From positions 56,599-120,598 of the forward strand of contig DATDPT010000069.1 of assembly GCA_035292605.1 (NCBI GenBank): 64,000 bases of DNA. The letters are read 5' to 3'. The translations under genes and the position numbers were made by a program. Source of the DNA: Acidimicrobiia bacterium (GTDB lineage: Bacteria > Actinomycetota > Acidimicrobiia > Spongiisociales > ZC4RG35). The notes under the pieces were generated by a model. It was not told where the DNA came from. It made no database searches and was given only the letters and a program-made list of their open reading frames with translations. The number at the start of each line of letters is the position of its first letter. Position 1 is the stretch's first letter. Shown in pieces: positions 8,989 to 61,638 of this stretch.

Positions 8989-9000
8989 TGTCCCTTTCTC

Positions 9001-39210: not shown

Positions 39211-40796
39211 TGCTCTCTCGTCATGGCCTGTTCATCTTCGACGACACGCGTTCCAAGTGCGTCGAAGACGACGTCGTCGAACGCACTAATGAACTTGCCG
39301 ACATTCGCGACGTAAGCCTCGGCCAGTTGCTCGGAAATGTCATCATCGGCGACACCGTCGAGGTAGTCCGCAAGTCGGAGAAAGATCGCGGGTCCCAGCA
39401 GAGTCTCCCGCTCCCCATAGTGCGCGGAGTACAGCGCCACAATCGACGTGCGAACGTCATCGGAAAGTTCGGGGTAAGTGTCACTCAGGAGTGAGTCGAA
39501 CTGCCCTGGGCTCAACGCTGGAACCGGGATAACCACGAATCTCCGTGATAGGGCCTGGCCCATCCTGAAGACGCGCTGAGCGTCCTGAGGATTGTATGTA
39601 CCTAACAATCGCCAGTCGCGACCGGCAAGATACCGGGTGGGCTCGCCAGTCGCGGTGTCCGTTGCAGTCGCCAATGAAATGTGAGAATCGGCCCAACCGA
39701 TGTGGATCGCATTGCCACCATGCGGGTTGGCTCTGCCAACCTCGACCTCTTGACGGGACAGCCACGTGAGTAGAGGCCCCATTATCTTGTCGAGGTCGGC
39801 CCGGTTCGTTTCGTCCAGTACGAGCCAGCGGTGCTCAGCAACCGCGTCCAGGAGCAGCCCGTTCGACCACACCAGGTTGGCGTTCTCATCCGGGGCTATC
39901 CCACCGACTAGGTCGAAGGCCGACCAGCTCTCATCGGGGGTGCGCCATATCGGATTCGGCACAAAATCGGGAGCGAAGCCGAACTCACCAGGATTCGCCG
40001 CGACCATGTTCACCATCCAGCGAACAAGTGTGCCTTTTCCCGTTCCTGGCGGGCCGACAAGCAGGATGCACGGATATCGCTCGACGGATCTGCGCAGCAT
40101 TCTCTCGGTTCGGGCATCCACGACGATTGTGACGTCCTCAGGAAGCATTCCGCCGGTAGGAGGAGTGGCCGGCGGCGCGGTGACCGTCACGGCCGCTGGA
40201 GGGCCTAGCGGATCGGGGATCTCATCGGGTGCCCACTCCGGTTCGCCGAGCAGCTGCACGCCGAGCGGTCGGCTGTCGGTCACGGTGTCTAGGGCAGCCT
40301 GAGTGATCGCAAGAGACGTGAGCAGCTGAGCCTCGGCCTTGGCCCAGTCGTCATTGTCTTCGAAATCCATGTTCCGGAGCAACAACGCAGCCAATGCCTG
40401 TTTCGATGGGAGCCGATCATCGGCCAAGGCTTCCGCGACGATCGCAGACGCGTTCGGCTTCAGCCCTTGGCGGATATCTTCGCCGTTGAAGATGCTCGTC
40501 GCCAACTTCGACCCGCGCGTTGTGTTGTTCCAGACTGTCTTGCGACCTGAGTCCTCAGCGCCCAGCCAGTCGTATCGGAATGGGTACAGCCGTCCGATCC
40601 TCTCCTCGGGTACGACATCGAACAGTGCCGACACAGCGTCGTTGGTGTCCGCGATCGCTGGGTCGGGATAACGCCCGTTTGCCTCCATCCACTTGGCCGT
40701 TAGGAACGACTCGAACATGGATACCTTGGCCCTGCTGTACTGCAGGCCTTTGAAGTCTCTGAGTGCGGCATTCATCGCCGCAGCGCTAACCCTCAT
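39171..40796 (-). CDS. McrB-like AAA+ GTPase subunit with N-terminal DNA-binding region
   Basis: Walker A LLVGPPGTGKGT, McrB-type Walker B LVLDETNRADLDKIMGPLLTWL, LLGTYNPQD...RRF. Confidence 0.75.
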   Translation of the reverse strand: MRVSAAAMNAALRDFKGLQYSRAKVSMFESFLTAKWMEANGRYPDPAIADTNDAVSALFDVVPEERIGRLYPFRYDWLGAEDSGRKTVWNNTTRGSKLATSIFNGEDIRQGLKPNASAIVAEALADDRLPSKQALAALLLRNMDFEDNDDWAKAEAQLLTSLAITQAALDTVTDSRPLGVQLLGEPEWAPDEIPDPLGPPAAVTVTAPPATPPTGGMLPEDVTIVVDARTERMLRRSVERYPCILLVGPPGTGKGTLVRWMVNMVAANPGEFGFAPDFVPNPIWRTPDESWSAFDLVGGIAPDENANLVWSNGLLLDAVAEHRWLVLDETNRADLDKIMGPLLTWLSRQEVEVGRANPHGGNAIHIGWADSHISLATATDTATGEPTRYLAGRDWRLLGTYNPQDAQRVFRMGQALSRRFVVIPVPALSPGQFDSLLSDTYPELSDDVRTSIVALYSAHYGERETLLGPAIFLRLADYLDGVADDDISEQLAEAYVANVGKFISAFDDVVFDALGTRVVEDEQAMTREQWEWTVIQRQTLG

Positions 40797-44700: not shown

Positions 44701-45069
44701 CTCAACACGGACCCGCTCATCACCGAAGGCATACAGCAGCGACACCGACTTAGGAGCCGAGAAGGTGTGGTCGAAGGCAGCCACCTTTCCGTGGCTGGCA
44801 AACCTACGCACCATGGAGTCACCCCCCGGAGTCTGGTGACCCATCAGCTTGGTGAATACCTCCGAGTCCACCTCAGATCCGGACTCCAACCCGAGTCGTT
44901 CCATGCCGCCCCCCATCCACCGAGAGGGTGATTCGTGGGAGGCGTAGTAGTCCACCTGGGACGGCTTCCGCTCTCCCCGCAAGACCGGAACGTCCTCACC
45001 GACCGAGTGGCGGAGTTGTTGGGTGTAGTACTCCGCCTGGGAGGCCACCAGCTTGCCGATCGACTGCAT
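41752..45069 (-). CDS. traA: MobF-family conjugative relaxase/helicase (TrwC/TraA-like)
   Basis: N-terminal relaxase domain (start MQSIGKLVASQAEYYTQQ, HTHVVVINRV His motif) plus C-terminal RecD-like helicase (Walker A GPGGSGKTYS). Confidence 0.9.
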   Translation of the reverse strand: MQSIGKLVASQAEYYTQQLRHSVGEDVPVLRGERKPSQVDYYASHESPSRWMGGGMERLGLESGSEVDSEVFTKLMGHQTPGGDSMVRRFASHGKVAAFDHTFSAPKSVSLLYAFGDERVRVEVTAAHQAAVADAMSYMEEHCSHSRLATKHRDAEGRWKVNTRTAESEGYVAAAFDHFTSRANDPQVHTHVVVINRVWADEGWRAIDAKRAYAHAKAGGSVYQAVLRDVLTQRLGVSWQPVVNGVADIAGFSPELVRHFSTRRTEIVEAVKRYLAEVGGEAHRRVWQSFTLETRQPKSHPTGEAEVTREMKDYGITSDVVAHWQRRAMDAPEDVAAVVRAAVGETRPSRRPEEEQVKAAARSLVEWVSDRQAVFTERDLVAHVSSIFPDGANQVELLATTGELLRAAQESGDVLTILPHAETGLVLPEGVVLSTEELDIAVGQGPGWLQQGGTVRFRALPGEARYTTRLHLEREQRVLDSVKVSSPLAPDREALERAIRIRELVEGQAEAVRHLGELDGRVVAVVGPGGSGKTYSIGAYADAVAAAGCPVIGVATSAAAARQLGEDLGERWTGTIAMLRHQLDASPDPLRPGTLVVVDEASMVSTADLAWLVENVEACHGKLVLVGDPKQLPSVDSGGVFHRIVASGEQVVDELVRVNQRQHLDFDRHALDRFRAGEIEQAVHEYAEAGRLHLGRDEYATKAAMVDAWWTDVQNHGLDGVRMLASRRDEVQMLNQLARVRMRDAAEITGPSIVNRWRIEFQAGDRIVVRDNWYAHADLRNGQTGTVLSVHPDPGSVSFRRDLDGEVIELPKRYLDRNVDHAYAQTIHTSQGQTFQSTHVYADTGVRAEHGYTALSRARGETHLWINDAPGPLGECTYIHGDPLAEDRVASLARQLSQSVIEPLAHDQGLPVTTATDQQLIEWRDELEGIIRRSPIGTDVTDELTAVEAAIDEANEIAERLRTSGARAQVRALVGRRDDLDRHVVTREAWLEQNAGVLHRYAVVADEMQHRINARVAAYEIHPPEEVIEAIGPPPTMDVLRRQQWSSAVARYAEARIKLGPAADVGDPAFVASAQWRDAVSAYDLTNVSGIDLRGPVLHGAMLHR

Positions 45070-45163
45070 GCTCTCAACCCCCCGCAACCTGTGGTTGCAA
45101 CTGTGTACGGTCAAACCGGTCGGTGGGCGAGAGGCGGGTGACTGTCATGGACGGCGACCGGGG

Positions 45164-45577
45164 TCAGAGACGGGCTAGGACGGCGAGCAAGGGGCGCTGG
45201 CAGGCTCCGCAGCGGCAGGCTCGGGGAGTGGGATGGGTCCAGCCATCGGGCCAATACGGGAGGCTGGTCGCGCATGTGGTGCAAAGGGCATAGCCGCCGA
45301 TGAGGGGTATCAGCGTGTACTCGTCGTCTACCGGGATCTGGGTGTTGCAGAGGTCGCAGATCCACAACGTGTTGTCATCTGGAAGGCTGGAGATCATGAC
45401 CACCCCGAGCCGCTCCAGGTCGGCACGGAGTCCAGCTTCGGCGGCGACCCGCCGCCGGTAGACCTCACGGTGGGCAGCGGGGCGGACCACGAAGCGGAGC
45501 TCATCACGGCACCGGCGACACAGCCCGACGTCGGTCAGGGGCTCGTGGGTGTCGCAGCTCGGGCAGTCTCCGATCAT
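45164..45577 (-). CDS. Zinc-ribbon (multi-CxxC) protein
   Basis: CPSC, CRRC, CDLC, CTTC and CRCGAC pairs in 137 aa. Confidence 0.45.
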   Translation of the reverse strand: MIGDCPSCDTHEPLTDVGLCRRCRDELRFVVRPAAHREVYRRRVAAEAGLRADLERLGVVMISSLPDDNTLWICDLCNTQIPVDDEYTLIPLIGGYALCTTCATSLPYWPDGWTHPTPRACRCGACQRPLLAVLARL

Positions 45578-46581
45578 GCCGACACCGCTTTAAAGCAGAG
45601 CAGATGGTCATCCCAGTCGGGTGTGGCTTGTGCGAGGGTGTTGAGATCGGTCCCGTCCGGCAAGTCGAGGATTCGAGCGTCGAGTCCTCGAGCAGCGAGG
45701 AGTTGTTGGAGACGGTCGGCGGCGACTCGGCCGGGATCGTCGCCGTCGAAGCCGATCAGGATCTGGCGGTGGCCCGTGTGGTCGGCGATGGTCTGGGCGA
45801 TGCACATGCTGGGGTAGGCGGCACCAAGAACAGCGACAGCGGGGAGACCGGCGGTGGCTGCTGTCAGAGCGTCGAGGACACCCTCACAAACGATGAGCAG
45901 ATCAGGCTGGCGGAGGGACGGGATGTGAGGCCAGGCGAGACCTGGGTTGGTTCCCAGCCGCCGTGTCGGATTCCCGTACTTTGTCCCGGCCCCGGAGTCG
46001 AGGTAGCGGGCCTGGACGTAGCTGAGACCGCCGGTCGGGTCCAGGGCCGGAAGCACGGCGGCCACTCCTGACCGTGGGAGCCCGAACCGTCTGCGGAGCA
46101 GGTTCGGTCCCGGGTCGGCGCCCACCCTGTTGGCGTTCAGGACTGCGGGATCGAGCCGCCGTTCTTCGATGAGCCATTCGAGGACCTGCAGGCCGGTCCG
46201 GGTCCTCAGGATGCGCTGGCAGGCGTCGACGTAGTCCTCTACCGAAGGATGCAGTGGAACGGGCTCGTTGACGATCGTGTCGTGGGGGAGGGGATCGAGG
46301 TGGGCCACCGCGGCGAGTTGGACGATGGCCACGCCGACGGTCACACCATGGGCCGCGACCAGGGCGTCGATGGCGGTACCGCCTCGACCACAGGACCAGC
46401 ACCTCCAGCGGCCGATCCCGTCGACCACTCGCATGCTCACCGACGGATGGCGATCCTCGTGGTCTGGATCCAGGCAACGCCACCGGCGCCGCTGGTGGCG
46501 GTCGGACGAAGCGGTGAGACTGTCGAGGAGACCGGCCAGGTCGACCCTGCGGCGCAGGTCGATCCGGTCGACGTGGCTCAT
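45574..46581 (-). CDS. DNA primase (CHC2 zinc finger plus TOPRIM)
   Basis: CLDPDHEDRHPSVSM...WRCWSCGRGGTAIDAL (CHC2) and LIVCEGVLDALTA...IGFDGDDPGR (TOPRIM). Confidence 0.8.
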   Translation of the reverse strand: MSHVDRIDLRRRVDLAGLLDSLTASSDRHQRRRWRCLDPDHEDRHPSVSMRVVDGIGRWRCWSCGRGGTAIDALVAAHGVTVGVAIVQLAAVAHLDPLPHDTIVNEPVPLHPSVEDYVDACQRILRTRTGLQVLEWLIEERRLDPAVLNANRVGADPGPNLLRRRFGLPRSGVAAVLPALDPTGGLSYVQARYLDSGAGTKYGNPTRRLGTNPGLAWPHIPSLRQPDLLIVCEGVLDALTAATAGLPAVAVLGAAYPSMCIAQTIADHTGHRQILIGFDGDDPGRVAADRLQQLLAARGLDARILDLPDGTDLNTLAQATPDWDDHLLCFKAVSA

Positions 46582-46928
46582 TGCTCAGACCGGTGGATCT
46601 CAGCCGTGGCGAAGCGGATCGAGGCGGCCAGCTCGTCGGCGTCGACCACGTAGCGGCGGCGCTTCTCTCCCGTGTCTGTAATCCATTCGTCCTGACGCAT
46701 CCGACCAACGGCCACCACCCGGTCCCCTTGGTGCAGAGACGCGGCGGCATGCTCGGCCAGCTTCCGCCAGACCACTACCGAGTAGTAGCTGGTGCTCTGT
46801 AGGCACTGGCCGGACGAATCCTGGTAGTTGCGGTTCTCGGCGATGCGCAGGTCGGCCACCGCTACCCCGCCCGGTGTCTCGCGGAGCTCGGGGTCACCGC
46901 ACAGGTTGCCGACGATGGTCGCATTCAT
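46578..46928 (-). CDS. ssb: Single-stranded DNA-binding protein
   Basis: MNATIVGNLCGDPELRETPGGVAVADLRIAENR...SYYSVVVWRKLAEHAA, an OB-fold SSB pattern. Confidence 0.8.
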   Translation of the reverse strand: MNATIVGNLCGDPELRETPGGVAVADLRIAENRNYQDSSGQCLQSTSYYSVVVWRKLAEHAAASLHQGDRVVAVGRMRQDEWITDTGEKRRRYVVDADELAASIRFATAEIHRSEQ

Positions 46929-47863
46929 CTCCGCTCCTTCCGATCGGTTCCGCTCGGCTCACGATCAGACACCATCATCATATCACTACCTAGCGACATA
47001 ATGGAAGGAGGTAGCTCGATCCGATTGGTTCTGTCGGCTAACGGCTCTGAACGCTGCCAACGGTCGAGGATCTGTCGTGAGAAGGTGACGATCCGCTCCC
47101 CCGTGGTGAGCAGGATCCGGTTCGGGTCGTCTGTGGTGTCAGCCCAGCGGGCGACATAGGCGACCGAGTAGTCGGAGCTGTCGAGACCGGCAGCCGCGCA
47201 GACCACGTAGGCCACCGACTCCGCCTCCACCTCCACCCGTCCCCGACAGTCGATGTGCCCGTCGCCTGCGTGCATCAGGACGTGGGCCAGCTCGTGGATG
47301 GTGGTCTTGGTCAACTGGGCCCCGTCGAGGTCGGCCTCGACTATCACCTGCCGACTCGCTGGTCGGGTAACACCGTTGGGGCCTCGGAGCGGCGCCAGAC
47401 TGAACTGGTATCCGGCGTCTTCGATCATCGAGATCCCGGTCTCGAGCACGGCGGTGTCTCCGTCGCCGGTGAGGAGTCGAGGACCGACGTCCGGTAGCCG
47501 CTCGCCGTCGGTCTGGGAGAGGTCGAAGACGGTCACCACCCGGAAGCCGACCAGCACCCGCTCTTTCTCCTCCGTGTCGGCTCGATCGTCTTTGACACGA
47601 CGGGTAACCGGAGCGAGGATCCGGTAGCCGGTCTCTCCCCTTCGCACATGGCGATCGAGGTGTTGCCAGGTCCGGTACCCGGCTGGTCTTGTGACCGTGG
47701 TGCCTCTCTCCTCGGCTTGGGACCAGAGGAGAAGCCAGTTGCCCAGCGAGTAGTCGTGGAAGCGGGCTGCGGTCACCATCGCCTGCAGCCACTCCTCCGA
47801 GGTTCGCAGTCGGGCGACCTGGTCGATGAGCTGTCGGTGAAGCTGGTTCGCTGTGACGCTCAT
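46925..47863 (-). CDS. ardC: ArdC-like antirestriction protein (ssDNA-binding N-domain plus zincin metalloprotease)
   Basis: Internal start MSVTANQ...; FHDYSLGNWLLL (ArdC-N) and HExxH (IHELAHVLMH). Confidence 0.8.
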   Translation of the reverse strand: MSVTANQLHRQLIDQVARLRTSEEWLQAMVTAARFHDYSLGNWLLLWSQAEERGTTVTRPAGYRTWQHLDRHVRRGETGYRILAPVTRRVKDDRADTEEKERVLVGFRVVTVFDLSQTDGERLPDVGPRLLTGDGDTAVLETGISMIEDAGYQFSLAPLRGPNGVTRPASRQVIVEADLDGAQLTKTTIHELAHVLMHAGDGHIDCRGRVEVEAESVAYVVCAAAGLDSSDYSVAYVARWADTTDDPNRILLTTGERIVTFSRQILDRWQRSEPLADRTNRIELPPSIMSLGSDMMMVSDREPSGTDRKERR

Positions 47864-48027
47864 CGCCACCTCACCGGCTCGCACCCGAAACAGAACAGGA
47901 ACGACACGCCGTCGGAGAAGGTCATCCGATAACGGGCCCGCCGATGCCGACACGACTCGCAGCGCCGAAGCGGCCAAACCGCCTGGACCCGCTGGTACCT
48001 GGCGTCGTGCAACGGGCACCGCCACAT
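47860..48027 (-). CDS. Small zinc-ribbon protein
   Basis: 55-aa C-terminal part of a long ORF (MWRCPLH...CESC...CFGC) with an ATGA overlap with the ardC start. Weak. Confidence 0.3.
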   Translation of the reverse strand: MWRCPLHDARYQRVQAVWPLRRCESCRHRRARYRMTFSDGVSFLFCFGCEPVRWR

Positions 48028-48110
48028 CTCGATCACCCGGTACCGCCGACCCAGCTCGTGGATGCAGCCACACGGTGCGATCCCGATTCGAAGCTGCGGG
48101 GTGAGAAGAG

Positions 48111-49232: not shown

Positions 49233-50474
49233 ATGAGCAGAAGAGAGGGAGGGCTCTTTCGACGGTGCCACACATGCGGACAGCGGGTCCCATCTCCATT
49301 GAAGACCTGCGGCTACGTCGATCAGGCCGGTTCGGTGTGTGGAGGTGAGGTGGGCTGGGGCTTTGTGTTCGACGTTGCACTTCCTGGTGCGAAGCGTCGG
49401 AAGAGAGTCACTCGTTCCGGGTTCTCCACGAAGAAGCAAGCCGTCGCAGCGATGCGCGAGGTGCAGGAGGCCGACGCCAAAGGGAGCCTCGTGGAGCCCA
49501 CGAGGCTGACGGTCGGTGAGTACCTGGCCGAGTGGCTGGCAGCTACTCGAAGCCGCGTAGGTGACGATCTCAGTGCTACCGGATGGCGTGACTACGAGAT
49601 TCACGTCAGACGGCACATCACACGCAGGATTGAGGAGGTGCCACTTCAGGCTCTCGACCGCAACCACGTGAAGGCTCTTTATGCGTGGGTTCAGGAGGGG
49701 AACTCGTCTCGGGGAGGGCGCCGGCCATCACCCAAGACAGTCCACAACATCCATCTCACGCTCCACAGAGCCCTCGAAGACGCGGTCGCTGACGGGTTGA
49801 TCGCCCGCAACCCAGCGACGAGGGCTCGCAAGGCGCCGAAAGCAGGTCGGGAAATGCTCACCTGGGATGAGGACCAGCTGCGCAGCTTCTTCCACGCCAG
49901 CGCCGAGGATCGCCTCTTCCCCTTATGGCAGATGACAGCCATGTCCGGGATGCGTCGGGGCGAGATCCTGGGGCTGCGGTGGGACGACGTCGACTTCAAG
50001 TCCTCGACGGTCACCGTCAACCGCCAGTGGAGGCGGGGTGAAAAGGGGTTGGTCCTGGCGCCACCAAAGACCGAGCGGAGCCGCCGTACCATCGACCTCG
50101 ACACTGAGACCGTCACAGTCCTCAAGAAATGGCGAACGGCGCAGCTCGAGGAGCAGATGGCCTACGACGGCGAGTGGCAAGACAACGGGTTCATCTTCAC
50201 CCGCAAGGATGGAAGACGCCACGACGTCGACGTTGTGTCTCAGCACTTCGATCGACTCGTGGCCCGGGCCGGGGTACCGCCTGTCAGGTTCCACGACATG
50301 AGGCATACCCACGCAACTCTGCTTCTCCTAGCCGGTGTCCCAGCCCATGTCGTCTCAATGCGTCTTGGGCATCGAAGCGTGGCGTTCACCTTGCAGCAGT
50401 ATGCGCACGTACTCCCCCAACAGCAGGCGGATGCGATCAAGTTGTTGGCGATACGCCTCTTCGGTGAAACGTAG
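49233..50474 (+). CDS. int: Tyrosine-type integrase with N-terminal zinc-ribbon-like segment
   Basis: Catalytic blocks R...HDMRHTHATLLL...LGHRS...Y. N-terminal CHTCGQ...CGYVDQAGSVCGG. Confidence 0.9.
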   Translation: MSRREGGLFRRCHTCGQRVPSPLKTCGYVDQAGSVCGGEVGWGFVFDVALPGAKRRKRVTRSGFSTKKQAVAAMREVQEADAKGSLVEPTRLTVGEYLAEWLAATRSRVGDDLSATGWRDYEIHVRRHITRRIEEVPLQALDRNHVKALYAWVQEGNSSRGGRRPSPKTVHNIHLTLHRALEDAVADGLIARNPATRARKAPKAGREMLTWDEDQLRSFFHASAEDRLFPLWQMTAMSGMRRGEILGLRWDDVDFKSSTVTVNRQWRRGEKGLVLAPPKTERSRRTIDLDTETVTVLKKWRTAQLEEQMAYDGEWQDNGFIFTRKDGRRHDVDVVSQHFDRLVARAGVPPVRFHDMRHTHATLLLLAGVPAHVVSMRLGHRSVAFTLQQYAHVLPQQQADAIKLLAIRLFGET

Positions 50475-51135
50475 GCCGACTATGCGGCGAGTCATTCGTG
50501 CAACTCCAACCCAGTCTGATGACGATCACGCGTCCGAGTCCCGAGGCGACGGTCCCCTCTCGCAGACCGGCGTCACCAAACCGAACTGGTAAGTCGTCGT
50601 CGAAACGTCCCTTGCCAACAATGGCACGTGCCACGTGTCCACCCTGGCCCCTTTCTCTCACCAACCCTCGTACACTTATCCGAATCCAGAGCCATGCAGC
50701 CCCTCATGCCACTTAACAATGGAAACCCGCACGTCGAGGTCATCCGCCCTCGCTGACCGAACGCAGCCGCCTGAGAACCACAGCTCAGGGAGATCGAACC
50801 ACCGACCGATGCCAGTAACGAGAGTCTTGGAACGGCCTCCGTCGGCTCCGGTGACGACGTGGGAATCTGTCGGTGGTTCGACGTACGGTGCAACGGCAAC
50901 CCCGATGACAAGGAGCGCGAGTGGGTGATGTCTACAAGCGAACGGCAAGCCAGGATCGCCTCGTTCACTCCGTCGATGCGAGCAGCCATCTCGCGGGCTC
51001 ACCCTACAGTTCCGCGTCTCGTGTCAACTGGCGGCGGGACCTGGTGATGCGGTGTCTCGGGCCGAGCAGAACCACCTCGGCCCTAGAGGAGTCGCCTGCC
51101 GAGGTGCCCATATCCAACCAACGAATGGACCGGGG

Positions 51136-54100
51136 ATGGCCATGAAGCCTCGAGACTTGGTCGCCAATGAGTCACCGAATCGGATCCGCGATCATTTCAA
51201 CCGAAAGGCTCGCTATAACCCGACGAAGAGCCTTACCGCACTCACCAGTCAGCTCACCCAGGAGTACGAAGACAGATTCCTGGTTGAACTGATCCAGAAC
51301 GCATACGACGCGCATCCTCCTGGTACCTCTGACGGACGAGTCCATGTGCGGTTGGACGAGTCCGCTGACAATCAACCTGTCCTCTACGTCGCAAACACGG
51401 GCAATTCGTTCAGGGAGAGGGACTTTGACGCATTGACGAACGTTGCGCAAAGCAGCAAGCCTCCGGGGGAAGGTATCGGAAACAAGGGAGTTGGCTTCCG
51501 CAGTGTTCTCCAGGTATGCGACTCGCCCGAGATCTACTCGTGTAACCCTGACCACCTGAGCGGCCCAGACTTTGATGGCTTCTGCTTCGGCTTCGCCACC
51601 GACCTTCAGATCCACGACATGGTCGAAGACGAGTCTCAGTACGAGATCATCAAGCGTGACTTCTCCCGTTACCTGCTTCCGGTCATCGCCTCGCCCACCG
51701 ACCTCCACCTCCGCATGTTGCGAGCCATCGGGATGGTGACGGTTGTGCGCCTTCCTCTCACCACAGAACGAGCGGTCGAACTCGCCCGAACTCAGGTACA
51801 TCGCCTACTCGAACCGACGCCGCCTGTCGCACTCTTCCTCGATCGTCTTCGGTCAATCAGCGTCGAACTCGTTGACAGTGATGGCCATCAGGAGATGGCT
51901 CAGGTCGACCGACTCGTGGAGGAGGTTCGCGGCGCGGAGGGTGGACCCATTCTCCGATGGGTCGAGACGGTGGGCACGCGGTTCCTCACCGCCAGCCGGG
52001 TGCTAACTGGTTCAGACGTGCGGAGCGTTGTCCGCGAGGCCATAGGTCTCGGCGAACTCGACCGTTCATGGGCGGCATGGGACAGCGACGTCGAGGTGTC
52101 TCTGGCGGTACCTACTGGATTGGACTCGCACGATGCTGGCTGGCCTTCGACTTACACCTACCTGCCAATGCGAGTTCCTGCACCCGTCTACGCGCATCTG
52201 CACGCACCATTCCACACAAAGATGGCGCGTCTCGATCTCAACGAGGACTCCGTGTTCAACGCATTCCTGATCGAGACGGCGGCGGAGCTAGCTGTCGACA
52301 CGATCCAAAGGCTCATTACCGGAGACGACCTCGACCTGGATCTCCAAACCAGACGGGCCGCAGTCGTTGATTTGCTCTGCTGGAACTCCGACCACATCAC
52401 CCACCTGGAAGGCGCTCTGAAGAAGGCAGAGCTCGATCTCGAGAGTTCGCCTCTAGTACCGGCTCGCGGGCCAAACGGCGGCGGATGGGCTGGTCTCGAC
52501 TCCGTGCGCGTTTGGAATTCGGACGGTCTCAACGTTCTAACCGCGCAGGCCATCGAGGCGCACACGCATCTCTTGGACCAGTCGATCGGACTTGACCGTG
52601 TCCTGCGACTGAAGGCCGTTTGCGAACACACCCTGTCGTACGACCTCGACCCAGAAGACCACGAGGTAGCAGATTGGATCGAGAAGGTCGCAAAGGGCCT
52701 GCAGAGCGCATCGGTCAGTAAATGGAACCGCTTCCTCAGCGACGTCGCATCGGTATTCGAGTCCCGCCAACCGAATGCACTTCAAGGACGGTTCATCCTC
52801 CTAGATGATAAGAAGAAGCTCCGACGATCAGGTCCATGGGATGCCGTGGGGGCAAATTCGTCGGAGCCGACCGTGTTCATACCGCCCAGCCCGGCGGCGG
52901 CGAAGAAAAGCGATGCCGGCGAGGGTTCCGAGTTCGCGACAGTTCCGAAGAATCTGCAGCGCGCAATCGCGTTCCTGCACCACGACATCAAGACTCGGAC
53001 CCGTGTCGGCAGCTCCTACAAACGCACCGCCGTGGGCGAACTCTTCAAGAAGGGTGACCTCGTAGAGCCTTTCGAACTGATGACGGTACTCAGTCACCTC
53101 GAGCGCCTCCTCGCCGGCAAAGTCTCAGACACCACGCACCGCCAGGCCTTGTCCTGGGTCTACGCGCAGGAGCATGCCTCTCGTTCGAACATAGCTGATC
53201 TGCCCCGTCTCGGACTTCGCGTTCCCACCGCCGACGGCTGGGTGCCCGCGAAGCAAGCCGTGTTTTCGCCTGAGTGGGAGACGCCCCGCGCTTCGGCGGT
53301 CGCAGCCTTGGTGGAGGACTCTGCGGGCGCATCTGAGTCGATCCAAAGATTTGGCGAAGGTGCCATCCGAGCGCCCGCGGACTGGCCCTTCAAGCTGACC
53401 GACGTCGATGCGTTTCGGGAGTTCCTCGCCCGCTGTGGCGTCCGAGACGGCCTCTTCCCGGTGGCCCTTCACTCAAGAACAACCATCAGGATGAATGGCA
53501 ACAGCTTCACACCGTCCGCCATCGCGAATCGATTCGGTCTTGCCGACTATCAATACTGGGCACAGCACACCAACGAAACCTGGCACCCGATCCTGGCTGG
53601 CCCCTACACGCCCTACACCGGAGACCAAGAACTTTGGATGGTCCCGGGCCAGGAAGCCTTCGAGTCGTTCGAAACGAACACCAAGGATCGGCTAGCGGCA
53701 ACGATTCTCGATAGCATCGCCGACTGGCCCGAAGAGGCGTGGACCTACGACTTCCGTCGACGATCACCACAGCACAGGCACAAGCCCGATCCTCAGGCGT
53801 GGCCATCGCCAGCGAGGACCTTCGTGGAGAAAGCCGATTGGTTCCCCATGTCGGACGCTGGTCGCCGCGATGACCACTACTTCGTGCCGCTCCAGGAAGG
53901 GTGGACGTTTGATGAGACAGCCAGCGAAACCGCACCCCGGTTCGCACGGCTCGCGCCAATCGACCACAGACGCAGGCTCACGGCCTCGAAACCAGCGCAG
54001 GAGCGTCTTGAGAAAGCCGGCCTCAAGACCTGGAACAGCCCTGCCTCCGCAGGGCCGCGACTGGCCGAGCTCGCCCGCCTCGTGGCGTCGGGTGAGGTGG

Positions 54101-56472
54101 CCGAAGCCGAGCTGCCATCGGTCCGAAGGGCCGCTAGCCGAGCATGGTCTGAGTTGGTTGGGCTATCACCCCTGACCGTCTCACCGGATCTCAGGCTGGT
54201 CACTTCCCGGGGCTCTGCTCTCGGGATACTTGAACCTTCTGATTCCAAAACCCCGGGGTTGTTCGTGCACGATGTGCCTCCTGGTCTCGTGGCTCAGGTG
54301 CTGGAAGCGGGCAGTTTCCCGCTCCTCGTCGCTGATCCAGCGGATGGAGAACGGATCGCCGATGCACTCGCCGGGAACGAAGGCATCCGGGTTCAACGCA
54401 CCTCGACGGTCGAGGCGAAGATCGTTCTCGACGGCCGAGAATTGACCCCTTCGGCCGAGAACGGCGAAGCACTCCTGGACGTATTCGGCTTCTGGCTGGT
54501 TCGTACCGTGCTAGCCATCGTCGATCTTCGCTCGACCCGATTCGTTCGAGTCACGAACAAGGTTCTGCACGACGCCGAGGCGACGCTGCGCCGCATGAGG
54601 TTGGCCATAGGCTCAGCAATTGACCTCACCGTTGATGACCGAACTCTCCCGGCTGCCGGGCGACTTGCCGAATGCGTACACATTGACGACCCGGACAATC
54701 CACTCCTTGTTCTCAACGGAACCGAGGTCGTGGTGCCCTCCTGGCGCGCTCTCGAGATGCTCGCCGATGACCTCGCAGAACTCATTGGCCAAGCGCAAGC
54801 GGCTTCCGAGATCCGTGCCGCAGCCCTCGCATTCGAGCGCTCGGTCGGCGACTGGCGCGAACCGTCTGACGCAGAGATCGCCAAAGTCCTGCGATGCAGT
54901 GTCGAAGCCGTGACGGATGTCCTCCACAATCTGCGGACCTCTACTGACCATCTCCGATTGCTCTTGGCCCCCTTTGTCGGCGTACTGGCCGGCATCGAGG
55001 TAGCTCGCCGGATCGACAGCGAGACAGTCGGAGATCTCAATGAACTTCATGTGCTGCTCGCGGACCTGATCGGTGACGACCAGGCGGCTGTCCTCTTTGA
55101 AAGCGCAGCACGCGCTGAGTCGGTGGATGGGATCAGGCGAGTCTTGGAGACGGAGCTTGGTCAACTCAACACCATGCTGTCAGAGCTCGGTCGCCCGCCG
55201 CTCTACTTCGCGGAGCTTCACCGAACAGCTCTGGACAGTTACCTCAACGAACACCGAGTGGGCGTGCTGAGTGCGCTCCGCAAACGCTTCCTGAAGCGGT
55301 TCGACGCCCTCTCGAGTCTCGTGGACTACGTGACGGCGAGGGACTTTCGAGACATCGCGCCCGATCCCAATTGGTTGCACGACTATGAGGTCCCCACCAA
55401 TGCGATGATGCGGGAGCTGTTGGACGGGTGGCTCGCCACCAAGGGCGAACCTCCGCCACCGACGGCCAAGACGCTGAAATCGATTGACGACGTCCGAGAG
55501 GCGAACCGGTCTCTGCTGGACCGTTGTCTGCCGCAGATCGCTCATCTCATCAGGGCCTGGTCCACTAAACGGGCATTAGACGCAGGCGACGTCTGGTCCG
55601 AGATTCAACCGGTGCGCGACACACTTGAGACGTCTGGATGTCTCGACTTCGTGGACCTCGAAGAACAACAGCTCATCGAGTGGCTGGACACGCTCGATCT
55701 CTGGCCTACCGGTATGGGCATGACACTCGACCCATCCGAACTCGGACTCTCGGTCGCTGATCTCGACGCTGCGAGCTCGTCGAGGTCGACAGCGGACGAC
55801 AAGCGACGACGACGACGTACTGAGCTGAAATTCGGAGAACAGACCTTTGACACTGCCAATACCGAGGGTCTACGAGAGTTAATCGACGCCGTCGCTGCGT
55901 CTGTCGACGACGACTTCCCGCAAACGCGATCGACGCCCACGAGACTCATAGCCGTCAGCCCACCCGAACGCCGCTCGCGCGGACCGAGAACCGGCTCTGG
56001 TACCACACCGAGGTCATACGGTGGACCGAAGCCAACCCAAGAACAGACCTCGGCCATCGGTCTCGCTGGGGAGGTTCTCGCATACAAGTGGCTGCAGGCG
56101 GCGTACAAGGAAACCACACCAGACTCGTGGGTGTCTGCCAACCGCACGTTCCTGCTCGGGGGTCATGCTGGCGATGACAGCCTCGGCTACGACTTCCGAA
56201 TTGCTCGCAAGAACGAGACTCTCTACTTCGAGGTCAAGGCCACCACCACGGACGAGTACGAGTTCGATATCGGTGAGTCCGAACTCCGAGCAGCACGTGC
56301 AGCCAGGAAAGGTAGGTATCGGATCATCTTCATCAGGTCGACCTTCGTCCCAGAAGAGCGACGGCTCCTAGTCCTCCCGAATCCGCTCGAGCCGGATGTC
56401 ATGACCTCGTTCGCCCAGATCAACCAGGGGATGCGACTCCGGTTCGATCCCGCCTTGGGCCGAGGTGGGTGA
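51136..56472 (+). CDS. Giant sacsin-type GHKL ATPase fused to a C-terminal DUF3883 (PD-(D/E)xK-like) domain
   Basis: N-terminus has Bergerat N-box ELIQNAYDA, G1 ANTGNSF, G2 GIGNKGVGFRSV. C-terminus has GYDFRIARKNETLYFEVKATT, DUF3883-like. Single ~1780-aa ORF. Confidence 0.75.
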   Translation: MAMKPRDLVANESPNRIRDHFNRKARYNPTKSLTALTSQLTQEYEDRFLVELIQNAYDAHPPGTSDGRVHVRLDESADNQPVLYVANTGNSFRERDFDALTNVAQSSKPPGEGIGNKGVGFRSVLQVCDSPEIYSCNPDHLSGPDFDGFCFGFATDLQIHDMVEDESQYEIIKRDFSRYLLPVIASPTDLHLRMLRAIGMVTVVRLPLTTERAVELARTQVHRLLEPTPPVALFLDRLRSISVELVDSDGHQEMAQVDRLVEEVRGAEGGPILRWVETVGTRFLTASRVLTGSDVRSVVREAIGLGELDRSWAAWDSDVEVSLAVPTGLDSHDAGWPSTYTYLPMRVPAPVYAHLHAPFHTKMARLDLNEDSVFNAFLIETAAELAVDTIQRLITGDDLDLDLQTRRAAVVDLLCWNSDHITHLEGALKKAELDLESSPLVPARGPNGGGWAGLDSVRVWNSDGLNVLTAQAIEAHTHLLDQSIGLDRVLRLKAVCEHTLSYDLDPEDHEVADWIEKVAKGLQSASVSKWNRFLSDVASVFESRQPNALQGRFILLDDKKKLRRSGPWDAVGANSSEPTVFIPPSPAAAKKSDAGEGSEFATVPKNLQRAIAFLHHDIKTRTRVGSSYKRTAVGELFKKGDLVEPFELMTVLSHLERLLAGKVSDTTHRQALSWVYAQEHASRSNIADLPRLGLRVPTADGWVPAKQAVFSPEWETPRASAVAALVEDSAGASESIQRFGEGAIRAPADWPFKLTDVDAFREFLARCGVRDGLFPVALHSRTTIRMNGNSFTPSAIANRFGLADYQYWAQHTNETWHPILAGPYTPYTGDQELWMVPGQEAFESFETNTKDRLAATILDSIADWPEEAWTYDFRRRSPQHRHKPDPQAWPSPARTFVEKADWFPMSDAGRRDDHYFVPLQEGWTFDETASETAPRFARLAPIDHRRRLTASKPAQERLEKAGLKTWNSPASAGPRLAELARLVASGEVAEAELPSVRRAASRAWSELVGLSPLTVSPDLRLVTSRGSALGILEPSDSKTPGLFVHDVPPGLVAQVLEAGSFPLLVADPADGERIADALAGNEGIRVQRTSTVEAKIVLDGRELTPSAENGEALLDVFGFWLVRTVLAIVDLRSTRFVRVTNKVLHDAEATLRRMRLAIGSAIDLTVDDRTLPAAGRLAECVHIDDPDNPLLVLNGTEVVVPSWRALEMLADDLAELIGQAQAASEIRAAALAFERSVGDWREPSDAEIAKVLRCSVEAVTDVLHNLRTSTDHLRLLLAPFVGVLAGIEVARRIDSETVGDLNELHVLLADLIGDDQAAVLFESAARAESVDGIRRVLETELGQLNTMLSELGRPPLYFAELHRTALDSYLNEHRVGVLSALRKRFLKRFDALSSLVDYVTARDFRDIAPDPNWLHDYEVPTNAMMRELLDGWLATKGEPPPPTAKTLKSIDDVREANRSLLDRCLPQIAHLIRAWSTKRALDAGDVWSEIQPVRDTLETSGCLDFVDLEEQQLIEWLDTLDLWPTGMGMTLDPSELGLSVADLDAASSSRSTADDKRRRRRTELKFGEQTFDTANTEGLRELIDAVAASVDDDFPQTRSTPTRLIAVSPPERRSRGPRTGSGTTPRSYGGPKPTQEQTSAIGLAGEVLAYKWLQAAYKETTPDSWVSANRTFLLGGHAGDDSLGYDFRIARKNETLYFEVKATTTDEYEFDIGESELRAARAARKGRYRIIFIRSTFVPEERRLLVLPNPLEPDVMTSFAQINQGMRLRFDPALGRGG

Positions 56473-57067
56473 ATCCCGTCTTACAGCCTTGCGGAGATAC
56501 CGCGAGATCCAGCAGGGAGAGCAGCGACCGAACACCTGTTCGCCTAGCCTATGCGTTGTGTTGCGCGACCTCAGCTACCGCCTCGACATCGCCCGGCGAT
56601 CACTCGCGAGCACTACCCGTCCAGACGGAAGTGTCGAACTCACCCGGGATGTCTACTCGAGATCCCACTTCGGGAGGTTGCAGCACTCTGCAACTCGGGT
56701 GATTGCTCAGCTCGTTTCTATACCGCTGCCGTCTTAGAAACGGGACGGTTCGCAAGTGGAGAGCCCATCATCAGGCCGCAAACCCGTCCACTGAATCTCT
56801 GCCAAACCGGTGTCATCCATGGACGGCGTTCAGGTTCGAATTCGGGACGGCAACGGTCGCCGGTCCCGTAGTCCTTGAGGCCGAAGACACCCCTCAGCCA
56901 GTCATCGCCCGAGAGCAAAGGGCCCCTGTCTCGGCGTCACTGCGGTCCCTTGTCGATGGGTCGAGGAGGAGGGAGCGGGGAACCATCCAGGGTCGTAAGG
57001 CCGGGCTCGACGCTGACCTTTTCGGTCGGGGAGGTGCACCAGCAACGGTGGTGGTGAGGATTACAAC

Positions 57068-59146
57068 TTAGGTACGCGGCCGAGATGTAACGAGGCCGCG
57101 GTCGTGGTAGTCAAGAATCGCTCGCTCGGCCGCTGAGCGGACTTCGTCTTCGGGTGCGTTTGATACGTCGATCATCAGGTCGATCGCCTCGGCCACAGGA
57201 ATCGGTCCCTGTGTGAGTGCTTCAAAGAGAGCTGCCGTTGAGAGTGTGAGCTCCAAGATGTTGGTCCGGAACGACCTTGCGTCCCTCTCGATGAGCACGT
57301 ACCACGGTCTGACACTCGTGAGATGAGGATGTCGAGAGAGACGAAGAAATCGGTGGGGGGCTGTGAGACCGAGAAGTCCAGCAGGAGCGAAATCCGCCGC
57401 GTCCGAGTCAGGTGTGGGTTCGGAGTAGAGGACCTCGGATCGGGTCCCAACGAGGAGAACCTGGTCTCGGATCAGACCGGCCTGCTCTCCGTCTGGACCG
57501 TTTGAATCCAGGCACGAAAGCACAAGTGCCTTGAACCGACCAAAATCGGACGGAAGCCCGGCATCATCGAGGACCCATTGCTCAAGAAAACGTGACCGGC
57601 TGGAGTCTCCAAGTTCACTGTACTGGGCGAATAACACTTCGAAAGGACGACTCAGAAAGTGGTACTTTTTTGTGAGGATGCTTCGACAGTATCGCTCAAG
57701 TGCCTCCTCATCCATCGATAGCTCGATCAGCGAACGACCTTCGTGTTGCGTGAGTTGCTCACGCGCAACCTCGGGAATCTCACCATTCCTGCGCATCGTT
57801 AATCGATACTCCCTGTCGGAATAAAGGCGAACCAATGCTCTATTGAAGCCGTCGATGGCCATTCTTCGGGTCTCCTTCTCTTGATAGTCAACGTGCACAG
57901 CCCCTATCAGGCGGTCGATCCAGCGCTTGCCAGTGTCATCGCTTGGCAGTGAGTACACGCTCCGACTCTTCTCGGCGATGGCTCCGCCAATGTCCGGATC
58001 CAATGCTGCGACGAGAGCTTCTGCGAGTTGATCGATCTCGCGCGGGTCGCTTACTAGAAGCACATTCTCTCTATCGATCAGAGGTTCGGTGGTTCGCTGG
58101 TATTCGGCGACATCCTTGGTGAGGATCACGCATTTTCCGGCACTCATGGCTTCACGGGGGATCTGGGGTCGATGAATCGTGATGGGAAACCTGTTCTCGA
58201 GAAAGGCAACAACCGAGGCGCGCGCCAGTATCTCCGGGACTCTCCAAGGTGGGAGGTAGGGAACAGCGATGAACCGTTCGGTGAGATTCCTGTTCTCAAC
58301 GTCACGAAGCAACCCTTCAAACCACGGCCCGCTCTGGCCGGTCACGAACAAGAGGCAGAAGTCAAGGCCTTGGTTCTGAAGGCGCTCAGCGGCCGCAATG
58401 AGCTCAGTGGTGCCCTTGAACTCCCCAAGCTTTCCGTAGACGAGAACCACCGGAGACGAGGTGGCCGTTGGCCCGATATACCGATAGTCGGACGAGCCAT
58501 CCAGGTCGGTCGCGAGGTCACGTAAGTCCAAAGGCATTGTCGCCTTGAACAGGGAGCGAGGCGCGAACAAGGGCCGCCCCACAATCATGCTTGCTGGGTC
58601 GGCTCCTAACTCCAAGACGGTTTGGGCCGCCGTCGGACTAGTAAGTATGCGATCCGCCTGCGCCAGTGCGGCCCCGTAAACGGAGCGCCTCGCAATCGAA
58701 GTAGAAAGGCGGGTGATGTCGCTTCCGGCGTGCATCAGATAAAGGGGGACCCCGGTTGCGGTGGCCGCAACCTGGGCAGCGACCCCAAACGGTTCCAGGT
58801 AGATGCCGATGACCGCTCGACAGTGCCCTTCATTGATGACTCGGACTGCCTCGCCCGAGAGTCGAGTGACCAAAGCGTTGGTCGTTGGGATCGAGTAGGA
58901 ACCTGACGATGACTCGAGATCATGGACCTTGACCCGACTCAGAGAGGGAAATTGATCAGACGCGTAAAGCCACTCGTTCGGCCGATGGAACTGGAGCTGA
59001 CTTGCTGATGGAACACGACCCGTCCCCACGACGTGCACATCATTGCCGGCTTCTGCTAGGCGATGTGTGAGCCATAGAGCTTGGGCGCTTGTCCCGCCTA
59101 TCAGGGGAGGGAACTTGCCGATGATGCATAGCGCAGTCGAGTCCAT
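57068..59146 (-). CDS. GT4-family glycosyltransferase with ~280-aa C-terminal extension
   Basis: N-terminal CIIGKFPPLIGGTSAQALWLTHRLAEAGNDVHVV and a GT-B C-terminal half (REAMSAGKCVILT); lower GC. Confidence 0.7.
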   Translation of the reverse strand: MDSTALCIIGKFPPLIGGTSAQALWLTHRLAEAGNDVHVVGTGRVPSASQLQFHRPNEWLYASDQFPSLSRVKVHDLESSSGSYSIPTTNALVTRLSGEAVRVINEGHCRAVIGIYLEPFGVAAQVAATATGVPLYLMHAGSDITRLSTSIARRSVYGAALAQADRILTSPTAAQTVLELGADPASMIVGRPLFAPRSLFKATMPLDLRDLATDLDGSSDYRYIGPTATSSPVVLVYGKLGEFKGTTELIAAAERLQNQGLDFCLLFVTGQSGPWFEGLLRDVENRNLTERFIAVPYLPPWRVPEILARASVVAFLENRFPITIHRPQIPREAMSAGKCVILTKDVAEYQRTTEPLIDRENVLLVSDPREIDQLAEALVAALDPDIGGAIAEKSRSVYSLPSDDTGKRWIDRLIGAVHVDYQEKETRRMAIDGFNRALVRLYSDREYRLTMRRNGEIPEVAREQLTQHEGRSLIELSMDEEALERYCRSILTKKYHFLSRPFEVLFAQYSELGDSSRSRFLEQWVLDDAGLPSDFGRFKALVLSCLDSNGPDGEQAGLIRDQVLLVGTRSEVLYSEPTPDSDAADFAPAGLLGLTAPHRFLRLSRHPHLTSVRPWYVLIERDARSFRTNILELTLSTAALFEALTQGPIPVAEAIDLMIDVSNAPEDEVRSAAERAILDYHDRGLVTSRPRT

Positions 59147-59164
59147 GCTCAGGTGCCAGTTGCC

Positions 59165-59998
59165 CTAACTGGGGAGGTCTCTTGAGATCGACTTGAGGCG
59201 GCCGACTTCGACAACTAGATCGGCGAGCATCTCAAACTTGGCGTCACGTTCCAGGATGATGATGCTCGGCCGCTGGACATTCAAGGCGTCCTCGTAAACG
59301 GAGAAGATCTCCTCCTGAATCGGAGCATCATGTGAATCAATAAGGAAACTGTCATGCCCGACCGAATAGCCGGCCACGTGGAATTGAGTCCATGGGACGC
59401 CTGCAATGTCGCCGAAGAGGTCATCCAAGTCACCAGCTATTCCGTTTGTCGCATTCAGCCACACGTTCGTTACGTCGACCAGGAGAGTTGCTCCAGTCCG
59501 TCGATGAAGCTCAGCGAGGAATTCCCCCCAACCGTACGTTGCCCCTGGGAGGCGTACCATTTCAGTGATCGTCTCGAGAACCAGAGGCAATCCGAGTTCC
59601 TCCCTCGCGATGTCAGCATTGTTGGCGATGACATCCAGGCCGCCTTGAGTGCGCCAAACGGGTGAGAGGTGCCAGATATCGAATCCTCCGGCGCGAGAGA
59701 TTGCCACATGTTCGCTGAAGTACGGCGGCTCGATAAGGTCTAGTAACCGCTTGAGATCGCCAAACATAGGCATCTCGCGAGGGTCTGATGACCCCAGAGA
59801 CATACTGACCCCATGTGGTATTAGTTCGAAGGACTCTCGAAGGGCTTCCAGTTCTCCGATGCGATCATTGGTTAATGGAAGGAATTGTTCGACAAGGATC
59901 TCCAGGACGTCAAGCTCGCTTGACAGCTCATGAAACTGGTCCGCCAAGGGCCGACGGTATCCGACTCCGAACTTCGTTTCGACAATGGACACGCTCAC
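59165..59998 (-). CDS. DUF692/MNIO-family enzyme (MbnB/TglH-like)
   Basis: Conserved DUF692 blocks HGVSMSLGS, EHVAISRAGGFD, LVLETITE, LLVDVTNVWLN, FHVAGYS, FLIDSHD. GTG start overlapping (GTGA) the AsnB-like stop. Confidence 0.75.
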   Translation of the reverse strand: MSVSIVETKFGVGYRRPLADQFHELSSELDVLEILVEQFLPLTNDRIGELEALRESFELIPHGVSMSLGSSDPREMPMFGDLKRLLDLIEPPYFSEHVAISRAGGFDIWHLSPVWRTQGGLDVIANNADIAREELGLPLVLETITEMVRLPGATYGWGEFLAELHRRTGATLLVDVTNVWLNATNGIAGDLDDLFGDIAGVPWTQFHVAGYSVGHDSFLIDSHDAPIQEEIFSVYEDALNVQRPSIIILERDAKFEMLADLVVEVGRLKSISRDLPS

Positions 59999-61638
59999 TT
60001 GGCCAGCTCCAGCCAGAACTCGGCGTACCACGTCTTCAGCACGGGGGGAAAGGGAATACGAGAGAACCACTCAGGCATGGCAGAGGCAATCTCAGACGCG
60101 GCGGCCTCAGTCGGCGGCTGTCGGAATCCCGCGTCGAACGCATTCGGAAGGCCAGATTTGGGCCGCGTCATGAATCTCTCCGGGAACTCATGCATAGATC
60201 TCAGCAATTGCCTCAGTAGGGGTTTCTGCTCCCAGGATTGAGTGTGAAGTCCGCGTTCAACCAAGCTGTCAGCGAAGGCGACGTTCTCCGTCGCCAGATA
60301 CGGCACACGGACCTCGAATCCGTGAGCCATTGACGCGTGGTCAAAGGGCAAGAGATGGGCATCGATAAGTTGGTGAGTCCTGTCAGTATTGGCGAACATC
60401 GAGTGTTGATACTGAGCACCGGCCCCGACGTTCTCAATGGCAGTTAGAACGGTATTGATGAGATCAGTGCTGTGTTCGACTTGGGAGTGTCTTCGAACGA
60501 TCCGTTCGATCCGCGGGCTCGGGTCTGCGTGCCACGGATAGCCCAAGTAGAGTTCGTCTGCGCCTTCTCCGCAGATCACCACCTTCGATTCTGGGAATTC
60601 CTTGCGAAGGCGAGCGAACATCCAGTACATCGTATAGGCGGAACTACCCCCCATCGAGAGAGCTGCTTTGCCGGGGCTCTCGAACAGGCCATCAAGTTCG
60701 GGTTGAACAGTCAGCAGCCGAATGCCGGCTTCGCGAGCTACATAGCGCGACCATTCCGCGTCCGGCGACCCAGGTGGGCCGACATAGACCCCCACCATTC
60801 TGTCTTTGAACCCCAGTCGAGACGCGAGTAGTGCAAGTAGTGATGAGTCAATCCCACCGGAAAGGAGTAGAAGAACTTCGGCTCCGGTGCCGTGAGTGAT
60901 GGTGTCGGTGACAGCTCTATCCAGAATGGAGAGTTGCTCTGCAACGATCGCTTCATCCGATCCGAGCGATCGAGTCCCGATTCGGCCGAGTTGTTCCCAC
61001 GTCTCCGAGATCGATCTAGGTCCATCCACCTCGATCTGGACAACGCTCGACGGTGGCACCTGTTCGATCCCTTCGATGACGCTGTTGCGGTAGTCCGAGA
61101 AGCCAAGGACGAAACGATTGACGAAGAAATCTCGGTTGAGGGCGATCCCATCCTCGGCCTGGACGCCGGCGACATGTGATGAGAGTGTTACCGCCATGCC
61201 GTCCTGAGCACGGTAAAGGAACAAAGGCTTGATCCCCTCCCTGTCTCGAGCTGCGACCACTCGCTTGTTCCTTTTGTCAACGATGACGATCGCGAACATT
61301 CCGTTCAGATCGTCGAAGAGGCGAATGCCGCGATATCGGTATGCCTCGCGGAGGAAGTCGTACTCGTTTCGAATTCCCCTTAATCCGTATGCGCTGGAGA
61401 GCGCCCGGTAGTTCCAGATCTCTCCGTTGAGTAGGGCGATGATCTCCTGGCCATCGTTCGATGATCCGATGCTGGCTTGCGGAGACTCGATAGCAAGGCG
61501 CACAAAGCCGGCGGCGTACCAAGCGTCGGCTTCCAACCAGTGCTCATCAGGGCCACGATCTTTGATTCGGAAGAGTCCTGTCTGGATACTTCCCCGCTCG
61601 AGTTCAGGAGCGTTGACGGTAACGACGATCCCACACAA
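59995..61638 (-). CDS. Asparagine-synthetase-like glutamine amidotransferase
   Basis: N-terminal MCGIVV (Ntn Cys) and PP-loop LLSGGIDSS; 547 aa. Confidence 0.85.
   Translation of the reverse strand: MCGIVVTVNAPELERGSIQTGLFRIKDRGPDEHWLEADAWYAAGFVRLAIESPQASIGSSNDGQEIIALLNGEIWNYRALSSAYGLRGIRNEYDFLREAYRYRGIRLFDDLNGMFAIVIVDKRNKRVVAARDREGIKPLFLYRAQDGMAVTLSSHVAGVQAEDGIALNRDFFVNRFVLGFSDYRNSVIEGIEQVPPSSVVQIEVDGPRSISETWEQLGRIGTRSLGSDEAIVAEQLSILDRAVTDTITHGTGAEVLLLLSGGIDSSLLALLASRLGFKDRMVGVYVGPPGSPDAEWSRYVAREAGIRLLTVQPELDGLFESPGKAALSMGGSSAYTMYWMFARLRKEFPESKVVICGEGADELYLGYPWHADPSPRIERIVRRHSQVEHSTDLINTVLTAIENVGAGAQYQHSMFANTDRTHQLIDAHLLPFDHASMAHGFEVRVPYLATENVAFADSLVERGLHTQSWEQKPLLRQLLRSMHEFPERFMTRPKSGLPNAFDAGFRQPPTEAAASEIASAMPEWFSRIPFPPVLKTWYAEFWLELAK

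Follow-up and report, generated by a model that had tools for sequence, protein, structure and literature searches.

The question raised by this locus is what function is encoded by the very long gene that lies immediately downstream of a tyrosine integrase gene, and on the same strand, in the genome of an Acidimicrobiia bacterium (contig DATDPT010000069.1, of which a stretch of 64,000 nucleotides, hereafter the window, was analysed). An initial annotation had proposed a candidate single-gene defence system, in which a Bergerat-fold ATPase is fused to a DUF3883 domain. The gene is probably tmtA, which by itself makes up a Tiamat system of anti-phage defence, and it is already recognised by a standard defence-finder model, so that the work described here is mostly a confirmation. 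It adds one more Tiamat locus, from the little-studied class Acidimicrobiia and from the integrase end of a conjugative element, as well as a map of residues for mutagenesis.

The assignment to TmtA is carried by the PADLOC collection, which holds nine models of this protein. Model PDLC03971 matched the window protein with E=0 and 1470.6 bits, residues 4-1772 being aligned with positions 12-1780 of a profile of 1782, and seven further TmtA sub-models matched as well; the match to PDLC03964 scored 201 bits over residues 39-770. This end-to-end match to the TmtA profile, together with the lack of a conserved partner gene described below, bears out the reading as a candidate single-gene defence system. 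In addition, all the components of the TmtA architecture are present in one polypeptide, namely the Pfam domains SACS and NOV_C, a GHKL fold, a long middle region and a PD-(D/E)xK fold. SACS was detected over its cut-off at residues 32-214 (E=4e-11), NOV_C/DUF3883 over its cut-off at residues 1681-1733 (E=1.8e-5), and the NCBIfam model P_loop_sacsin, which describes the sacsin N-terminal ATP-binding-like domain, at residues 46-134 (78 bits; cut-off 50). The fusion of a Bergerat-fold ATPase with DUF3883 is thus sustained by both profiles and folds, as is the NO VEIN-like combination of NOV_C with an ATPase of the SACS type in the same polypeptide; of the two profiles that had been put forward as a check, DUF3883 was recovered, whereas HATPase_c_3 gave only a sub-threshold match in the Pfam scan. 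The bacterial counterparts of this architecture had been called uncharacterised, which was not the case, since it is already catalogued as Tiamat (Millman et al. 2022) and represented in PADLOC. The initial annotation was right on the observation and on the function, but not on the novelty.

The coding sequence itself is sound. In the list of open reading frames (ORFs) of the window the frame is unbroken over 51052..56472 (+), and the product was found to be 100% identical to an NCBI protein of 1776 amino acids from an Acidimicrobiia metagenome-assembled genome (P0001, named 'DUF3883 domain-containing protein' and encoded on a contig of 124.6 kb), which places the start at 51142 (MKPRD...); the ATG at 51136, initially chosen, would give 1778 amino acids, that is, 2 more. 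The translation holds VELIQNAYDAH, VANTGNSF, GEGIGNKGVGFRSV and LGYDFRI...LYFEVKATT, and all the motifs first quoted for the large ORF beside the integrase were therefore found in an intact frame. Homologues numbered 687 at E<=1e-5 and, among the best 120 of them, most were 1740-1830 amino acids long, with 97-100% query coverage and 29-76% identity, which excludes a chance ORF. The alignment of homologues, built with 46 sequences and then with 100, was nearly without gaps over the whole length.

Tiamat is a single-gene system from Millman et al. 2022, where it is described in the supplementary tables and not in the preprint text. The supplement gives it as SG165 'Tiamat', from Bacillus cereus FORC_005, with a TmtA of 1590 amino acids, the domains 'Hsp90, DUF3684, DUF3883' and the mark verified. 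An alignment of the first 399 amino acids of this verified protein with the window protein spans 384 positions, 24% of them identical (E=5e-7), and the same N-terminal fragment falls in sub-model PDLC03964 (462 bits). As judged by this N-terminal part and by the sub-models, the window protein is probably a genuine but distant relative of the verified TmtA, belonging to another sub-model. In both, one large gene encodes an Hsp90/sacsin-like ATPase at the N-terminus, an extended middle part and DUF3883 at the C-terminus; the N-terminal ~385 residues, at the least, are homologous, and the verified protein's sub-model matches over residues 39-770. They differ in sub-model (PDLC03971 versus PDLC03964), in length, the window protein being ~190 amino acids longer, in Pfam DUF3684, not detected in the window protein, and in host, which is here an actinomycetote of the class Acidimicrobiia. 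Family members are listed across phyla in Table S20 of Millman et al., among them a number of Actinobacteria as well as Burkholderia plantarii ATCC 43733. On a plasmid of B. plantarii there is a homologue that matches the window protein over its full length (26% identity, 98% coverage), and from the species name we assume this homologue to be the listed entry.

The N-terminal ~400 residues are modelled as two domains that together make up a GHKL module, of the sacsin/Hsp90/MutL/MORC/topoisomerase-II type. AlphaFold2 models were built from 43-sequence alignments for residues 1-1000 (mean predicted local distance difference test, pLDDT, 88.1) and 961-1776 (mean pLDDT 89.8), and the structural relatives of the N-terminal module include topoisomerase IV ParE (43 kDa), the MutL N-terminal domain, MORC3, MORC2, SMCHD1, TRAP1 and GRP94; these fold relatives identify residues ~40-235 as the Bergerat ATP-binding domain and ~236-400 as a second domain. 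The nearest relative of the ATPase domain, in both sequence and structure, was sacsin SR1, whose crystal structures were also the best PDB sequence matches. ATP-contact positions were mapped with the residue table for sacsin and Hsp90 (PMC9880540) and a profile alignment to sacsin, and residue conservation was counted in 100 homologues, with identities down to ~26%. Overall, the predicted ATP-contacting positions are conserved in 89-100 of these. The N-box comprises E49, L50, N53, D56 and A57, with E49, N53 and D56 kept in 99 homologues, and the lid residues, mapped from sacsin/Hsp90, would be S104 and K106. In the G2 glycine box, G113-x-K115-G116-x-G118-F119, the three glycines are invariant, and the conserved threonine T200 is T or S in every homologue. 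The G1 box reads N85-x-G87...F90, N85 (99/100) and F90 replacing Hsp90 D79 and M84 as they do in sacsin; the three Bergerat motifs initially recognised are therefore present, although this one is of the sacsin type and not the canonical DxGxG. Moreover, R363, found in all 100 homologues within an invariant APF...R motif, is a candidate gamma-phosphate-sensing arginine contributed by the middle domain. Targets for mutagenesis in the ATPase are E49, N53, D56, N85, K106 and R363.

At the other end of the protein, the C-terminal ~145 residues are modelled as an Hjc-like PD-(D/E)xK nuclease in which the E...D...ExK...E site is intact. The catalytic candidates E1644, D1684 and K1699 are each conserved in 100/100 homologues, E1697 in 99/100 and E1714 in 97/100. 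The initial annotation had made its reading depend on an acidic/lysine triad being kept in alignment, and with these residues retained that reading survives. In earlier work, DUF3883 was placed in the PD-(D/E)xK superfamily and termed a novel restriction-endonuclease domain (PMC3424549; PMC3710099). The defence protein HmaA has conserved the equivalent NOV_C residues (D1084, E1104, K1106 and E1121), and when key residues of its NOV_C domain were mutated, nicking and phage defence were lost alike (PMC11232893). The corresponding mutagenesis targets in the window protein are E1644, D1684, E1697, K1699 and E1714.

Between the two modules lies a region, 70% of TmtA, which is confidently folded and has no known relatives. 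It was modelled with high confidence except for a loop at residues 586-597 and the linker that closes the region, so that the prediction of a folded middle region, sought from the outset, was obtained. The initial estimate of more than 1300 unannotated residues was roughly right, there being ~1,460 amino acids between the Pfam matches and ~1,230 between the structural domains. No Pfam match over threshold was found in this region in six family members, and no credible sequence match in the PDB. A phmmer search with residues 401-1500 against 1.84 billion representative proteins gave 500 matches, 236 of them at E<=1e-30; in the full-length ones the region occupies the same position in a protein of ~1750-1830 amino acids, while the remainder are shorter and apparently partial. 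We put forward, as a tentative and on balance rather doubtful proposal, that the ~1780-amino-acid proteins of the PDLC03971 type form a mechanistically distinct Tiamat branch, with the middle region as an infection sensor of a new kind that would control both a GHKL clamp and an Hjc-like nuclease. If true, the sacsin / NO VEIN architecture of eukaryotes, for which an explanation is still awaited, would have a prokaryotic counterpart in this branch.

In the GHKL family (MutL, MORC, GyrB, Hsp90), ATP binding dimerises the N-terminal modules. By analogy with these proteins, ATP binding by TmtA would close the lid and bring two N-terminal domains together, while the middle region could act as sensor and scaffold, recognising an infection cue such as phage DNA, replication intermediates or a phage protein. 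The ATP-driven conformational change would then activate the tethered nuclease, which would nick or cleave DNA, and phage replication would be stopped directly or through the death of the cell.

The nearest functional logic would be that of MutL, in which a GHKL ATPase gates an endonuclease at the C-terminus, together with that of the NOV_C nickase demonstrated as an effector in HmaA. HmaA shares with TmtA the NOV_C/DUF3883 PD-(D/E)xK effector and its D...ExK...E residues (PMC11232893). The motor of HmaA is an Snf2 helicase, whereas that of TmtA is a GHKL ATPase, and the Hma system is annotated with three genes (HmaA, HmaB and HmaC) against one in Tiamat (PMC11232893). Compared with MutL and MORC, the ATP-binding domain of TmtA is of the sacsin subtype, with N85 in place of the G1-box aspartate, ~1,230 unrelated residues stand between its modules, and no MutS- or MutH-like partners are present; compared with MutL, its nuclease has a PD-(D/E)xK fold and not the metal site of the MutL C-terminus. 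As for the eukaryotic proteins NO VEIN (NOV) and sacsin, they are the ones after which the Pfam pair SACS and NOV_C is named, and the similarity shown covers the two terminal domains. The domain composition of NOV is assumed here from the Pfam naming. Sacsin ends in DnaJ and HEPN domains and not in NOV_C (PMC3710099).

The genomic contexts of the family were compared in nine distinct neighbourhoods, the window included, which is a small sample without a statistical defence score. Hallmarks of mobile elements or defence were found in 7/9, and the contexts are variable and rich in such genes, so that the housekeeping setting which, according to the initial annotation, would have spoken against a defence role was not observed. 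The homologue with 76% identity is flanked on one side by toxin-antitoxin genes, NERD and PycTM, and on the other by an RNase_H_2/superfamily 1 (SF1) helicase protein, DISARM DrmD, an N6/N4 methyltransferase and another helicase. A tmtA with 54% identity (locus L010) has a Wadjet-like operon on one side and AddAB-like genes followed by BREX on the other. Islands that contain both an integrase and a TrwC relaxase harbour two further homologues (~31% identity), and in one of these islands there is a restriction-modification pair as well; the combination of integrase and relaxase therefore occurs beside tmtA in 3/9 contexts when the window is counted. Another homologue has an integrase 6 kb away, and yet another is surrounded by transposases. 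No conserved partner emerged when the upstream neighbours in eight related loci were compared all against all by BLASTP and with the window by tblastn, and one neighbour, the RNase_H_2/SF1 helicase protein, recurred in just 2/9 contexts. Such unconserved and mobile contexts fit a mobile single-gene defence function.

Two of these arrangements deserve a separate description. The helicase protein (L001, 15403-18918, +; L006, 15335-18781, -) adjoins tmtA in both cases and has 1150-1170 amino acids, with RNase_H_2 and SF1 helicase domains (AAA_11/AAA_12/AAA_30); its PADLOC match is partial, limited to a C-terminal helicase region that is MkoA/MkoC-like, and it may be an uncatalogued defence gene travelling with Tiamat. 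Locus L010, in turn, forms a compact multi-system defence island around tmtA (1514-9844 and 15533-25334), in which the Wadjet-like operon consists of DUF2397, DUF2398, an SMC-like protein and DUF3323/DUF2399, and the other flank of AddAB-like PDDEXK_1/UvrD followed by BrxE, BrxA, BrxB and BrxC.

Several points weigh against the assignment of an anti-phage function. The sole verified TmtA is only ~24% identical, and in the N-terminal part only; it is thus no more than distantly related to the PDLC03971 sub-family, and defence activity should not be assumed here. A second TmtA candidate, from Enterobacter (1429 amino acids), gave no protection when tested (Millman et al. supplement). In the literature searched, there was neither a report of a PDLC03971-type member (~1780 amino acids) being tested nor a published Tiamat mechanism; published reviews list the mechanism as unknown, and one preprint merely groups Tiamat with single-gene PD-(D/E)xK systems. 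A study of Actinobacteria reports Tiamat to be almost always chromosomal and not on phages or plasmids. A passage of PMC9880540 presents as debated whether sacsin-type domains bind ATP at all. Finally, 2/9 contexts show no obvious defence genes.

In this context, other functions have to be considered. Tiamat-like proteins could serve in conflicts between mobile elements or in the maintenance of the element itself, by excluding or degrading plasmids that enter the cell or rival conjugative elements, or as an addiction module, and not in phage defence. This would suit a gene placed beside the integrase of an element that carries ArdC, a relaxase and a coupling protein, as well as the two other homologues in integrase-plus-relaxase islands, the 19 plasmid records with homologues (7 on conjugative plasmids) and the presence of neighbours which, like Wadjet, target plasmids. 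Nevertheless, the family is defined by anti-phage activity, verified for one member, and many homologues lie off recognisable mobile elements, so that we hold this explanation to be improbable, while noting that the two roles are not mutually exclusive.

More remote is the idea of a housekeeping factor of DNA repair or chromosome organisation, MutL- or MORC-like, which stands near the element by chance: the completely unconserved neighbourhoods speak against it, as do the small number of middle-region representatives found among 1.84 billion proteins, the association with integrases, transposases and defence systems, and the homologues on plasmids, and we regard it as very unlikely. The kinship of the ATPase domain with sacsin SR1, and the description of sacsin as a chaperone (PMC3710099), would allow TmtA to be an ATP-dependent chaperone or scaffold whose NOV_C domain binds nucleic acid without cutting it. 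The near-invariance of E1644, D1684, E1697, K1699 and E1714 down to ~26% identity argues to the contrary, as does the homologous domain of HmaA, which is an active nickase required for defence (PMC11232893), and such a role is hardly to be expected. A Tiamat-type anti-phage system is thus the preferred reading of tmtA, with the features of gene and window summarised in Table 1.

Table 1. Features of tmtA, of its product and of the surrounding conjugative element, in window coordinates.
Feature	Position	Strand	Details
Type IV coupling protein (T4SS-DNA_transf/TraG-D_C)	3348-5147	-	
EccE-like protein	6319-7689	-	
N6/N4 DNA methyltransferase	36756-37973	+	
417-aa protein	37957-39210	-	
AAA_5 ATPase	39171-40796	-	
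TrwC relaxase-helicase	41752-45114	-	
CHC2/Toprim primase-like protein	45574-46581	-	
ArdC anti-restriction protein	46925-48073	-	
Tyrosine integrase	49233..50474	+	413 aa; Pfam Phage_integrase E=4e-27, arm-binding and SAM-like domains
Non-coding spacer integrase-tmtA	50475..51141	.	667 bp
tmtA	51142..56472	+	1776 aa plus stop; ORF list, translation, NCBI match, PADLOC
GHKL (Bergerat-fold) ATPase domain, sacsin/Hsp90 type	51259..51846	+	residues ~40-235
Second, transducer/middle-like GHKL domain	51847..52341	+	residues ~236-400; invariant A355-P356-F357...R363
Conserved region, no known fold relatives	52342..56037	+	residues ~401-1632; mixed alpha/beta, then largely helical
Basic, low-confidence linker			residues ~1611-1627; end of middle region
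NOV_C/DUF3883 PD-(D/E)xK domain	56038..56469	+	residues ~1633-1776; E1644 (helix 1), D1684, E1697-V-K1699, E1714
Spacer 3' of tmtA	56473-57067		595 bp; no credible ORF

A conjugative element takes up most of the window; its conjugation genes extend back to at least 3348, with the far boundary probably outside the window. The initial annotation took the gene to be cargo of an integrative and conjugative element (ICE). Its adjacency to the integrase holds and the proposal is plausible, but unproven, since the search for attachment (att) repeats was negative and the gene is placed beyond the integrase, on its outer side; given this position, tmtA may be cargo of the element or could instead belong to an adjacent islet that shares its hotspot of integration. 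The search for att sites, by direct repeats throughout the window and by 13-mers from three spacers around the integrase and tmtA, gave chance-level matches only. When 185,579 species genomes were scanned for relatives of the integrase, only distant ones appeared (best 38% identity over full-length matches), and neither an empty site nor a sister element was identified; 0/62 loci with relatives of the integrase carry a tmtA homologue, and the integrase-tmtA pairing is therefore not a conserved module.

The tmtA promoter presumably lies in the spacer that separates the gene from the integrase, and the unusually long spacers on either side of the gene could contain regulatory elements or element boundaries; in both of them, no tRNA, no Rfam match, no sigma-70-like consensus and no repeat common to the rest of the window were found. 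An ORF at 50573..50989 (-), considered as a partner gene, was rejected as spurious, having an implausible composition, no family match and no homologue beside other tmtA genes.

Other genes of the window were also recorded, among which a transposase, an ABC transporter and a methyltransferase with its AAA_5 neighbour count as cargo scattered through the element. Many ORFs between 7 and 27 kb lack a Pfam match and may be mating-pore genes. An ISL3-family transposase of 469 amino acids (33063-34472, +; DDE_Tnp_ISL3 E=6e-55, with zinc ribbon and helix-turn-helix) is inserted within the element, and an ABC transporter/FtsX permease pair (30308-32244) adjoins it. The N6/N4 DNA methyltransferase (PADLOC MTase_II, E=4e-45) adjoins the 417-amino-acid protein, which has no family match, and the AAA_5 ATPase of 541 amino acids; the methyltransferase and AAA_5 group may be a pair for restriction or defence, McrBC-like or of another unclassified type, and as such is unrecognised by PADLOC. 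Directly downstream of tmtA, a block of lower GC content (~0.57) extends over 57068-61638 (-) and encodes a 692-amino-acid group-1 glycosyltransferase with a weak, sub-threshold NGO1945_C-like match near its C-terminus, an enzyme of the MbnB/TglH/ChrH family (DUF692, E=7e-57) and an asparagine-synthase-like amidotransferase. This block looks like a small cluster for peptide modification, of the type of ribosomally synthesized and post-translationally modified peptides (RiPPs), or for a glycoconjugate.

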